This document shows positions 39,815-64,000 of a DNA stretch of 64,000 nucleotides, one piece after another. The notes below the pieces were generated by a model. It had not been told where the DNA came from. It saw only the letters and a program-made list of their open reading frames with translations, and ran no database searches. The stretch spans positions 43,206,347 to 43,270,346 of the forward strand of contig NC_092386.1 of assembly GCF_030028105.1 (NCBI RefSeq). The letters run 5' to 3'. The stretch is from Mobula birostris (lineage: Eukaryota). Numbering within the stretch: position 1 is the stretch's first letter; each line of letters opens with the position of its first letter. A program made the position numbers and the translations under genes.

Positions 39815-39941
39815 CACAAAATAATCTGCAGATGCTGGGGTCAAAGCAATACTCACAGCACGATGGAGGAACTCAGCAGGTCGGGCAGCATCTGTGGAAA
39901 TGATGAGTTGACGTTTCAGGCCGGAACCCTTCGTCAGGACT
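39815..39941 (-). mobile_element. Miniature PLE-derived element with hammerhead motif, 15-bp TSD
   Basis: TSD AGGACTTAACTTAAT at 39800-39814 and 39936-39950; rc agtcCTGACGAagggttccggcctGAAACGTC. Confidence 0.85.
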
Positions 39942-40176
39942 TAACTTAATAGCATCTATCAATAAAACTTCATTCTTTCTTAAGACCATAAGACATAGGA
40001 GCAGAATTAGACCCATCGAGTCTGCTCCACTATTCAATCATGACTGATCCTTTTTTTTCCATCTCCTCCTCAACCTCAGTTCCCGACCTTCTCCTCATAA
40101 CCTTTGATGCCATGTCCAATCAAGAACCTATCAATCTCTGCCTTAAGTACACCCAACAACCTGGCCTCCACAGCTG

Positions 40177-44197: not shown

Positions 44198-45232
44198 CAG
44201 TGGGTTATGGTTAATTGTAATACATCGGAACCGGTACACTTTGACCTAATTAAGTGGCTGCCCCAGTTAGCGGAAGTTTCATGGAAATAATTAAAAGATT
44301 TAAAAAAGACAAACTACCGTTTAACTGAGTAACAATTTATGTATTTAAATGAAATACAAAACAAATTAGACCTCTGCCAATATCTCTATGGTACTATAAA
44401 ATTGTCTATTTGTTCCTAATAGTTATTGATGGAAGAATTCATCTGATATTCGCAATGAACAAAATAAATGTAGACACCTAGTGCAGATAATGAGTTGTCT
44501 TTCTACAATGCTATTGATGTTTGCATCCTCCACATCTCCATTGTCATTGTAACATTCAAGATGATCGTTAATACCTTCAACCTTTTTTGTAGTTCCTAAT
44601 TTGCTGAAGCCTTCAAATTACTTAATTTTCACTCCTAATGATTTCTGGCATCTTCAAGCCTGTATGCTTGAAACCACAATGAACAAAACAGTCCTGAATT
44701 GTCTTACTGCTTATTTTTCCCTAACTATCAGTGATAAAAATCAAGCAACACACATCAAAGTTACTGGTGAACGCAGCAGGCCAGGCAGCATCTCTAGGAA
44801 GAGGTACAGTCAACGTTTCAGGCCGAGACCCTTCGTCAGGAAGGGTCTAGGCCTGAAACGTCGACTGTACCTCTTCCTAGAGATGCTGCCTGGCCTGCTG
44901 CGTTCACCAGCAACTTTGATGTGTGTTGCTTGAATTTCCAGCATCTGCAGAATTCCTGTTGTTTGCAGTGATAAAAATCACTTCTTTTTGAACACAAGCA
45001 CATGCAACTGGCGCTATTTAAAAATTGATCGTTGTAAGCACGGTGTAGTGTCTAAAGGCCACTGGTTAAAAACTGTTTGGCAACAGTCTTCTGTCCCAAT
45101 TAAATGGAAAAGCATTGCAAATAAGCTAAGGAGATCCCAGCTATTTTCTTGATTTAGTTTTTCTTCTTTAAGAGTTGTCCCAAATAAGCAGCTGCCCTGG
45201 TAACAGAAGGCCCAATTAACCAGAATACACTG
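44198..45232 (+). mobile_element. pogo/Tigger-like MITE hosting a PLE palindrome
   Basis: TA + CAGTGGGTTATGGTTAATTG ... CAATTAACCAGAATACACTG imperfect TIRs. Confidence 0.7.
44744..44965 (+). mobile_element. Fold-back miniature PLE-derived element, 15-bp TSD
   Basis: Arms 44741-44833 / 44841-44933, 7-nt loop, 35-nt tail; TSD CAGTGATAAAAATCA (44729-44743, 44966-44980). Confidence 0.9.
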
Positions 45233-46580
45233 AGTGGATAGGTACAAGTTAATGGTGACATTTTGTCCATCAGTCAGCCTGTAACAGGAAGCATACTGGC
45301 TATGTAAATAGTTAATAAAGTGCATTCATCTCTAATTAATGCATACTTTTGAATAATCTACTGCTTGATCAAAGACCGAGCTCTGGAATGTAAATTTAAG
45401 TAATTTTCTGTCTCTAGTCTTATTCAGAAAATTCTCCTTCTAGTACTCTCTTTGTTTTCAGCTGTTTTTCTGCACAAACCTGGTTCAACTAATCCTAGAA
45501 TTCTTTTAGATTTGTTCTTAAAGCTTCAGTTTTATGTTTGGCAAATAGTCTGTGTTAAAAGGATAGGAACATGAAGGGATCTAAATTGAGTTTCCATCAG
45601 ATCCACAGAAGCAGATCTTAGTCAGAAATCCAAAAGTGAACTCAGATTCATTTAAAATTCAACATATTATGTCTTAGGAAATAGTATTCAAATAGTAATT
45701 TGTAGCTTTAGCAAAATACCTTAATAATTTTATCAGATTGAGGGAACAGTACTTTAAAGTTCAGAAAGTTTAGGAAGTATGTTGTTCCAGACATAGGATT
45801 CTGTAAATACGGAATTCTTGAAGCTCAGTTAATTAAATTAGGGAAGACAAGGATAAGCAGGATCACCTACAATATTGTTAGCTATCTTGCCCCAGCTACC
45901 CTAATCAAGATGGTAGTTGAGAACAACCCATCATCTATGATAGAAATGCAATTATGACTTTGGAATTTTGGAAGATATAACCCCAAAAAAGGCTAAAAAA
46001 GACTTCAAATCAATTGAATGTGACTGTACAGAAAAGGAGATTATGTATTTCCCTCTCAATTCGCTCTTTTGCCTTTCTGAAGTGCATTTTTACTGTACAT
46101 GGGCTTGTGCTTCACTGGAGAATATCAGTGTGTGCAGTGCTGAATGAGGGAGCAATAGTTGCTCAGTCTGGGGTGTCCGACATTATTGTTTTCTGGAACC
46201 AGGGTAGACATTGGTTCAAGCTGTAGCTCTGTTGTTATATTGTCATCATGATTAATAACATCATTTTCTATTCCTTATTCATCCAATCGTTCAGCCTACC
46301 AAAGCACAAGGTGCTTTAGCTCAAAGCCCGTTTGCTCCGTATAGAACATAGAATAGGATAGCACAGTACAAAACCTTCAGCCCGCATTGTTGCTTGACAT
46401 TTAAACCTATACCAAGATCATTCTAATTCTTTCCTCCCCCTTTATTTCTCTTTCATCCATGTGTCTATTTAAGAGTCTCTTAAAAGTCTGTAATGTAACT
46501 GCATCTAGCACCACCCATAGGAGCATATTCCATGTGCCATTACGCCCTGTGTAGAAAACCTATATTCCCTTACTCACTCT

Positions 46581-46692
46581 TCCTTCAGTTAGTCCTGACG
46601 AAGGGTCTCGGCCTGAAACGTTGACTGCACCTCTTCCTAGAGATGCTGCCTGGCCTGCTGCGTTCACCAGCAACTTTTATGTGTGTTGCTTG
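46581..46692 (+). mobile_element. PLE pLTR monomer
   Basis: Near-identical to the right arms at 44.9 and 63.8 kb; ends at GTGTGTTGCTTG. Confidence 0.85.
46591..46626 (+). ncRNA. Minimal type-I hammerhead ribozyme motif
   Basis: AGUC-CUGACGA-AGG(GUCUCGG)CCU-GAAAC-GUU/GACU: stem I AGUC:GACU, stem II AGG:CCU, self-complementary AACGUU in place of stem III. Confidence 0.7.
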
Positions 46693-53212: not shown

Positions 53213-53353
53213 AACTAAGTATTGGATGTTTGCAATTATAACATTGGAAGAAATACAGTAAATACATGTTAAGAATATATTTTTACTACTTCTCCAGTGA
53301 ACTTCCAAAGGTAGAATGAGTGAAGGTTTGTAAATGCTACTGGCCAGTTTCAA

Positions 53354-53483
53354 CGACAAACACAGAAAATCTTCAGATGCTGCAAATCCAGACCTATGAA
53401 AGGGCCTCGGCCTGAAACATCGACTGTACTTTTTTTCATTGATGCTGTCTGGTCTGCTGAGTTCCTCCAGCATTTTGTGTGTG
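53354..53483. mobile_element. Miniature PLE-derived element with inverted tail, 13-bp TSD
   Basis: TSD TGGCCAGTTTCAA (53341-53353, 53484-53496); antisense tail ~53354-53392 then sense body with decayed HHR (ctatgaaagggcctcggcctGAAAcatcgact). Confidence 0.82.
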
Positions 53484-53838
53484 TGGCCAGTTTCAATGTC
53501 CGATTTTCCCTCAGTTTCCGGTAGAAGAAACCCGAAGGGCGTAATTTTTTTGGACTTAAACTGGTGATAATAAATTAGCAGCTGGATTTTATTTTCAATG
53601 TCTAAAATGGGCTACTGATTTATTTATGGGACAGTAATTTTGAAGCCTATATTCTTTGATTAATTAAAAATAAAATGATACATGTTTGTTAAATTTCAGT
53701 AACCTGTTAATTTAGCACAGTCAGGTGCATTTGGCATAACTGCTTTGAATAATTATTGGCCATCCTGCTCAAAATGCACTCAACTGGACAACACAAGAAC
53801 AACAAGAATCAGGCAAGAGACTACTTCAGAGGGTTAAA

Positions 53839-62600: not shown

Positions 62601-63635
62601 AAAAAATCTCTTCAATATATCTATATATGCATTTAGAATACAGAGTTGTTGATGTTCAGTCTGTTTTATGTGTTATATTGCTCCAGAGTTGATAAAGTTA
62701 AAGGAAATAAATAGATTGTGATGGTCATTTTTTTTAAATGGTAGCTATCATTTCTCACCCAGGTGTGTTGAGTTTAGAAAAGGAATTTGCTGAAAATGTT
62801 ATCCCTAACCTGTAGCTATACAAATTTTAGCACCTGAATGTTTTCCTGTGCATCTGACATCTAGTTTTTGATGACCTATGAGACTTAACTTAATTTTTTT
62901 GGATCCAATAATGTCAACTTGCTGTCTAAAGTCATCATTATTTAAAATGGCAAGGCCTACAATGCCATATACAACTTATGGTCTTTGTTGAGAAGCAGGA
63001 AGTGACTTACTCCCAATACTACTAAAATATAGTGCAGCTGCTAAAATATAGTTTATTTCTAAACCTAAATTCTACTTTATCAATATTCTATCAAAAATCA
63101 TCACAAAATGCATGACTTCAAAACATGCAGCTTCTTTCCTTCCCATAATTTTTCAGTCCCACTTCATGGAAAAAATATTGAATCAATTGATCAATTAATA
63201 GATCAATAACTCTGTTTAGACATTCCACATTAAGAAGTACCTAATTGGCCGAGGCTAAATGCTTTTAAAAACATATCCTGAAAATCAATAATGCAGTAAC
63301 TGCATTTTAAACTGAAGAATGCACACAGCCATCAGGAAGAAGATGGATTCCTATAATCTTTGAAAGGCATGAAGCAGTACAAACAAGAAAGGCCACACAT
63401 TATGTCCTCTCATTTAAGGTTTTACTTTTTTGATGATCTTATATGTTATTAGGTAACTAAGTATCCTTAATTAAATGCTTAATTGAACAATTTAGTTCAC
63501 TCAAATGCAATAGCGGTTAAAGTTGATCAATCCACATTTTCTCCTTTGTTACTTATATATTTCAACATGCAGAATGTTGTGTGTTTTCCAAAATTAAAAC
63601 CATGCAACGTGAATTCCAAGAAGACAGGAATAATT

Positions 63636-63894
63636 AGCAACACACATCAAAGTTGCTGGTGAACACAGCGGGCCAGGCAGCATCTCTAGGAAGAGGCCCA
63701 GTCGACGTTTCGGGCCAAGACCCTTTGTCAGGGCTAACTGAAAGAAGCTTCTTTCAGTTAGTCCTGACAAAGGGTCTCGGCCCGAAACGTCCGACTGTAC
63801 CTCTTCCTAGAGATGCTGATGGCCTGCTGTGTTCACCAGCAACTTTGATGTGTGTTGCTTAAATTTCCAGCATCTGCAGAATTCCTCATGTTTG
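63636..63894 (+). mobile_element. Spacerless palindromic miniature PLE-derived element, ~13-bp TSD
   Basis: Arms 63636-63747 / 63748-63859 centred on AAG|CTT; 35-nt tail 63860-63894; TSD AGGAATA(A/G)TTAGC (63626-63638, 63895-63907). Confidence 0.9.
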
Positions 63895-64000
63895 AGGAAT
63901 AGTTAGCCACTGATGGGCAGTTAAAATGCTCTAACATGTTTGTATTTTATTTTAAAACTAACAGGTGCAGTATATAAACAACTTTAAATGTTTTATTTGA

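Follow-up and report, generated by a model that had tools for sequence, protein, structure and literature searches.

This locus raises the question of how a palindrome without a spacer comes to carry the same unusual letters in both of its arms. It lies at 63626..63907 of the window, that is, of the whole stretch of 64,000 nucleotides of Mobula birostris DNA (contig NC_092386.1) that was analysed. The initial annotation had described a spacerless palindrome with arms of 112 bp, and this description is borne out: the centre is at 63747|63748 (GAAAGAAG|CTTCTTTC, spacer 0), the match is perfect for 14 bp per side, and the arms (63636-63747 and 63748-63859, 112 bp each) are identical at 105 of 111 aligned bases, with 6 mismatches and 2 gaps, which makes 8 differences in all (about 7%), the nearest of them 15 bp from the centre. 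The 271-nt strand is predicted to fold into a single hairpin (z −27.9; 0 of 200 shuffles were equally good). In the element numbering used here, in which position 1 is 63748 on the right arm, the right arm (63748..63859, plus strand) represents positions 1-112, the 3' end or pseudo-LTR of a Penelope-like element (PLE), 5'-truncated just upstream of the hammerhead, and is continued by a one-sided tail of 35 nt (63860..63894, plus strand). The left arm (63636..63747, minus strand) is an inverted, tail-less copy of the same positions 1-112 and stops at the inner one of the two 3' end points that the family uses. Both are enclosed by a target site duplication (TSD) of 13 bp, whose left copy (63626..63638, plus strand) shares its last 3 bases with the outer end of the left arm and whose right copy (63895..63907, plus strand) has one mismatch to the left copy, at 63902. 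The palindrome is an ordinary fossil: an insertion, dead and 5'-truncated, of a Penelope-like retroelement that is abundant in the genome.

Each arm contains a minimal type I hammerhead motif, at 63700..63735 on the minus strand and at 63760..63796 on the plus strand, as read from the sequence against the features given in the available part of PMC4209133. A G-to-A change in the conserved hammerhead core had been noticed before; it is indeed there and is G8, which is A in both arms (63726 and 63769), leaving them without the C3-G8 core pair. In the right arm, stems I and II form (z −0.5) and an extra base adjoins the cleavage triplet; this ribozyme is predicted to be inactive. A two-base change adjoining the left-arm hammerhead (63697-63698) has 1 match genome-wide and was therefore taken as private and rejected as a lineage mark. 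Rfam over the whole window gave nothing that reached gathering and no hammerhead match; at E values up to 10, generic hairpin families alone appeared, every one below gathering.

Might the palindrome have been made by the assembly, or by a fold-back read? The contig pieces listed for X1, X6 and the other runs do not span its centre, as such an artefact would allow. However, the arms are 7% apart, a TSD is present, the tail is on one side, and both outer junctions are found on contigs of two species labels from two studies. Contigs of run X1 (organism A), possibly the sample behind the assembly, cover 63300-63660 and 63871-64000 with 0 differences, and those of run X6 (organism B, a different study) show 5 differences over 63300-63662 and 1 over 63870-64000. 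The TSD mismatch at 63902 is absent in X6, so that the duplication is perfect there. Two further species labels have the empty site: contigs of X19 and X20 (organisms G and H) join 63638 to 63921 or 63923 across only 14 or 16 letters, without the unit of 268-269 bp, and their left flanks differ at 12/304 and 10/339 letters. Because of the arm divergence, the junctions in X1 and X6 and the empty site in X19 and X20, an artefact is extremely improbable; hundreds of like insertions elsewhere in the genome also speak against it. Since the site is empty in G and H and both outer junctions are present in A and B, the insertion would be younger than the split from G and H and older than the split between A and B.

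The family is a Penelope-like element, and its unit matches the published layout of an inverted copy plus tail. Its features are an adjacent inverted 5'-truncated copy, a 35-nt tail at one end, a 13-bp TSD with an empty site, and a hammerhead motif in the pseudo-LTR, the last read from intact family copies against the available part of PMC4209133. Placement in the "Poseidon type" is putative and goes by the layout only. Upstream, longer family copies include the last part of a reading frame in which GIY- and YIG-like motifs occur, a part of the element that the stub at 63626..63907 does not reach. In one such copy (L260), examined for the C-terminal GIY-YIG endonuclease with CCHH motif of endonuclease-positive elements, the frame just upstream of the pseudo-LTR has both motifs, cysteines between them and two histidines after, and it scores against Pfam PF01541 with an E value of 0.0013 and 19.4 bits, under the cut-off of 22.6. 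A 603-aa frame of a LINE-type reverse transcriptase, uninterrupted by a stop, lies at the same locus (L260:1167-3625) inside one arm of an inverted insertion, likely as a later insertion.

Fifty 10-kb stretches taken at fixed steps contained 14 arms in 13 insertions, or about 1 per 38 kb, which corresponds to roughly 10^5 family insertions in the 4.0-Gb genome. Two patterns for the centre of short palindromes matched at least 271 and 414 times (reversed controls, 0), and with the whole unit as query 40/40 scored candidates matched on both strands. Exact symmetry without a spacer was seen in 8 of 108 short pairs. For near-symmetric palindromes, the pattern search found 0 at an arm length of about 240 bp and 7 at about 430 bp, hence 271 short palindromes versus 0 and 7 at two upstream points, and 6 of 14 random arms have their inner end within −25 to +17. 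This concentration of inner ends immediately upstream of the hammerhead may mark the 5' end of the RNA. A self-propagating, MITE-like fold-back mini-element was considered and rejected, since the centres vary between copies in position and in inserted bases.

Several relatives lie in or near the window. A second head-to-head insertion, the 44.8-kb reference copy, is at 44737..44965 (44723-44980 with its 15-bp duplication) and has an asymmetric centre and a right-hand tail; a single tail-less family copy is at 46566..46692 on the plus strand. A third head-to-head insertion follows about 190-380 bp beyond the window's end (L001:1834-2020), with a left tail, a 14-bp duplication and a shortened right arm. 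More distant are a copy at 53341-53497 (about 75% alike; 13-bp duplication, apparently with a very short inverted tail piece at the left) and, on the minus strand at 39825-39949, a hammerhead-bearing copy of a family about 73% alike. Elsewhere, about six 61-bp head-to-tail units with a hammerhead motif stand upstream of a tailed copy (L027:1501-1987), retrozyme-like but locally derived.

The states CTGACAA, GGCCCGAAAC and GCTGTGTTC, on which the initial annotation built its case for a common template, are on both arms, and the 44.8- and 46.6-kb copies have other letters there. As copy-specific variants they do not hold up: GGCCCGAAAC is a lineage allele and the other two are CpG decays. Position 36 (GGCCC or GGCCT) has C in 74 of 220 unselected arms, and C and T are both able to pair in stem II. 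Position 22, the G8 of the core, has decayed at its CpG in 9/126 unselected arms and position 83 in 19/123. Two or more shared decays occur in 0.6% of shuffled pairs and in 1 of 97 real unselected pairs versus 0.57 expected; a double match is therefore uncommon, yet expected somewhere among many palindromes. We searched for a source lineage with both decays, and 0 of the 29 closest copies carry both (40 of 2596 candidates scored). Inheritance of the two decays from a partly decayed source copy and parallel decay have about even odds. The comparison of arm-to-arm with paralogue likeness at non-CpG sites goes against a special closeness of the two arms: they differ at 5/82 sites, 16 of 131 pairs are equally or more distant, and, compared with its own partner, 180 of 238 other copies lie nearer to the tailed arm (102/238 for the tail-less arm). 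For this copy, this is the outcome that the initial annotation had itself named as refuting its reading. Because its arms are farther apart than most, this copy gives no support of its own for a shared source, and of the proposed single template for both arms only the family-wide counterpart, a common source, is left standing.

Across the family, both arms usually share a source lineage, as several comparisons support. The non-CpG distance between arms is 3.3% versus 5.4% when partners are shuffled (100 pairs; 0 of 2000 shuffles as low). These 100 were kept from 108 pairs, 8 being dropped because the duplication was too short, the pairing of a tailed with a tail-less arm was missing or identity was below 84%; the same rules removed 28 of 159 pairs from a larger set. 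At the lineage sites 36, 50, 62, 100 and 101 the arms agree with odds ratios of 58-420, and at 9 of 10 decay sites significant agreement is lacking (100 pairs). In the larger set, all four lineage sites are concordant in 81/114 pairs versus 18 expected, and at least one is discordant in 33/114. Rare non-CpG variants (count 4 or fewer) are common to both arms in 17 cases versus 0.5 in within-lineage shuffles. One rare lineage, seen in 2/359 sampled arms, has 138 exact matches; among the first 67 listed, 20 make 10 head-to-head pairs, judged by place and strand with one checked for duplication, and 47 are singles. Of the 45 singles that were read, 19 lie in duplication-bounded inverted insertions, and the other arm is of the same lineage in 14, of a different one in 3, mosaic in 1 and uninformative in 1. 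The rare lineage is thus in both arms of 24/28 informative inverted insertions. The upstream parts of long arms agree as well (6.3% vs 7.3%, p 0.0025; multiple alignment of 20 pairs without the rare-lineage loci); an earlier and cruder reference-projected test of the long arms, later redone, had given no clear signal, with the distance to the own partner below the median in 11/19 pairs.

The second regularity of the family is that one arm is tailed and the other tail-less in 85 of 86 palindromes for which the centre was the sole selection criterion. Among 30 unpaired copies met incidentally, 14 end near position 110 and 13 near position 147, so that an independent choice of end would give such pairs about half of the time and does not explain 85/86. 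Two exceptions to the one-tail rule, L039/L042 and L041/L043, come from a set picked by likeness; they are palindromes tailed on both arms with no clear duplication. The arms are not nested either. Among 22 long family pairs (24 rows, 2 dropped as other families), the tail-less arm is longer upstream by at least 25 nt in 8, the tailed arm is longer in 7 and the two are within 10 nt in 7, where 3 of the last 7 and 1 of the 8 derive from a pattern that fixes the arm end.

These observations bear on fold-back, in which the first cDNA would double back and be copied, so that one arm derives from its partner at the DNA level. The initial annotation had proposed fold-back or a template switch as the origin, and the available part of PMC3846280 proposes self-priming for palindromic PLE junctions. 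Spacerless or near-symmetric centres do occur (8/108 exact), and lineage alleles are common to both arms, as such copying would give. However, since either arm can be the longer one, neither is a DNA copy of the other: the tail-less arm has upstream sequence absent from the tailed arm in 8/22 long and 54/108 short pairs (BLAST edges), and an arm that lacks the tail cannot have served as template for it. Taken together, a longer tail-less arm and the absence of the tail from it indicate that both arms came from a template holding everything, most simply RNA. Furthermore, unpaired copies also use the tail-less end point, and certain insertions hold arms of two lineages. As a general route we consider fold-back improbable, given the nearly invariant tailed and tail-less pairing and the length differences in either direction. 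Two independent RNAs from the active pool, one priming from each end, would explain agreement between arms by one lineage dominating at a given time or in a given germ cell. In line with this, the arms of the present copy are not unusually close, the PLE protein is predicted to be a dimer (available part of PMC11167929), and 3/28 insertions are discordant and 1 is mosaic; together with the 33/114 discordant pairs these cases mean that two different RNAs are sometimes used, or that paralogues convert. As the usual route, two RNAs chosen independently seem unlikely, because they fail to explain the 85/86 pairing and because rare variants are shared beyond within-lineage shuffles (17 vs 0.5 at a count of 4 or fewer).

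The agreement might also have arisen after insertion, by conversion of one arm to the other through a hairpin or cruciform. The best candidate for arm-to-arm copying, or for a lost source, is L216 (G000:C34:9213881-9213963), where a private multi-site variant over the hammerhead, close to the centre, is in both arms and has just these 2 exact matches in the genome. Variants confined to the two arms of one pair (9 vs 0.03 expected), the excess of pairs with A at G8 in both arms (13 vs 6.2, p 0.004) and the shared decays of short pairs when sets picked by likeness are included (21 vs 13.4) point the same way, and room must be left for some conversion or for templates that no longer exist. On the other hand, CpG decays, which postdate insertion, are shared in 14 cases versus 11.7 expected among 97 unselected pairs (p 0.25), and tight and widely spaced pairs are alike (non-CpG 3.5% vs 2.9%; CpG decay 22% vs 23%). 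The present copy retains its 8 differences, one of them 15 bp from the centre. Homogenisation within the palindrome, the other origin suggested at the outset, is accordingly at most minor, with L216 as a possible exception, and has little probability as the cause of the agreement.

A further claim was that a probably inactive ribozyme copy had been mobilised. The hit at G8 is real; whether it was already on the template of the present copy has about even odds, perhaps somewhat better given the second shared decay. Short palindromes sorted by the state of G8 gave 414 with G in both arms, 87 mixed and 15 with A in both, where 414 and 87 are raw pattern matches; among the 15, L210 and L217 lay outside the family, had matched by chance and were excluded, leaving 13. 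These 13 compare with 6.2 expected (odds ratio 2.8), so that about half of the both-A cases would share their origin, or else lineages are mixed. The 62T lineage is commoner in both-A pairs (5/13 vs 5/37 and 5/41), and a lineage mix may therefore give part of the excess. Age was rejected as its cause, since the other CpG sites have decayed to a similar degree (13.6%, 12.2% and 11.9%). Mobilisation of a ribozyme-dead copy would not surprise, because hammerhead-dead RNA with G8 mutations still inserts in vitro, according to the available part of PMC11167929.

We propose that the insertion probably arose when the two ends of a single staggered cut each primed reverse transcription, with RNA from a single source locus as template, where one RNA molecule and two of the same locus would look alike in sequence. 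The element's enzyme would place nicks in the two strands at a distance of about 13-15 bp. Synthesis from one 3' end would begin at the outer start site, which yields the tail; from the other it would begin 35 nt farther upstream, at the inner site, which yields the tail-less arm. Both would copy the same stretch, often stopping just upstream of the hammerhead, perhaps at the 5' end of the RNA, and end-joining would fuse the two cDNA ends head to head, in the present copy without a spacer, after which the arms would decay independently. In this model, opposite start sites are used in one event, and in about 85% of cases the RNA would come from a single source locus. Short insertions or repeats of bases are frequent at the centres, consistent with end-joining, and at many junctions the additional 2-12 bases are copies of neighbouring arm sequence, a pattern resembling that of polymerase-theta-type end-joining. 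According to the available part of PMC11167929, purified PLE protein cuts and extends both strands, starting at two internal sites that bound the tail. Against the model, the start site is described there as the same between strands, and paired use is not part of the results in that portion; the sub-threshold endonuclease match of the family weighs against it as well. A more tentative version, a double-copy twin priming that we regard as possible but somewhat doubtful, has one enzyme complex copy the same RNA twice, from start sites 35 nt apart, onto two nicked strands. Every insertion would then begin as a tailed and tail-less pair, single arms would have lost one cDNA, and partly decayed, ribozyme-dead genomic copies could serve as templates.

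The layout itself is already in print. How the inverted repeat plus tail of PLEs forms is called undefined in PMC8557442 and is still not resolved in PMC11167929, as far as the available parts of both go, and the counts presented here (85/86 tail pairing, 24/28 same-lineage arms, arms that are not nested, little conversion) narrow the options for unit formation. They also mean that a large vertebrate genome retains tight palindromes by the hundred although their arms convert each other only to a small extent. In the open-access literature searched, neither arm-to-arm lineage agreement nor strict tail pairing was found.

Among known systems, twin priming of L1 is similar in that both cut ends prime and an inverted 5' part lies within the TSD (available part of PMC11702581). 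In L1, however, the inverted part continues beside the end of the first cDNA, with 1-10 bp lost or doubled (same source), whereas the two arms of the present family copy the same 100-800 nt and those at 63626..63907 both represent positions 1-112; the palindrome is thus not an L1-type product. Non-LTR retrozymes are likewise short, non-coding, PLE-related sequences with a hammerhead, but form head-to-tail arrays, unlike the head-to-head pair described here, which is a truncation of a longer element (compared with the available part of bioRxiv 10.64898/2026.07.22.740005). Intact copies of the family have the minimal hammerhead of metazoan PLEs as given in the available part of PMC4209133, with its core, an extra base after position 9, the G10.1-C11.1 pair, palindromic 15.2-16.2 and no helix III; the arms at 63626..63907 differ by the change of G8 to A. 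The Poseidon element PAc of Anolis carolinensis offers a biochemical parallel: the two end points that bound the tail correspond to its two start sites in vitro, both strands are cut and extended, and a dead hammerhead is no block to insertion, although the available part of PMC11167929 makes no connection between these start sites and the arms of a single insertion. The published unit of endonuclease-positive PLEs (Penelope/Poseidon type) consists, in the available parts of PMC8557442 and PMC3846280, of a pseudo-LTR, an adjacent inverted 5'-truncated copy, a one-sided tail of 30-40 bp and a TSD; lineage agreement between arms and strict tail pairing are absent from those texts. The insertion at 63626..63907 shares with this unit the inverted arm, the one-sided tail (35 nt), the 13-bp duplication, the head-to-head junction and the minimal hammerhead, and longer family copies also share the end of a GIY-YIG-like frame upstream. 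What sets it apart is that both of its arms are cut to 112 bp, so that the palindrome alone remains.
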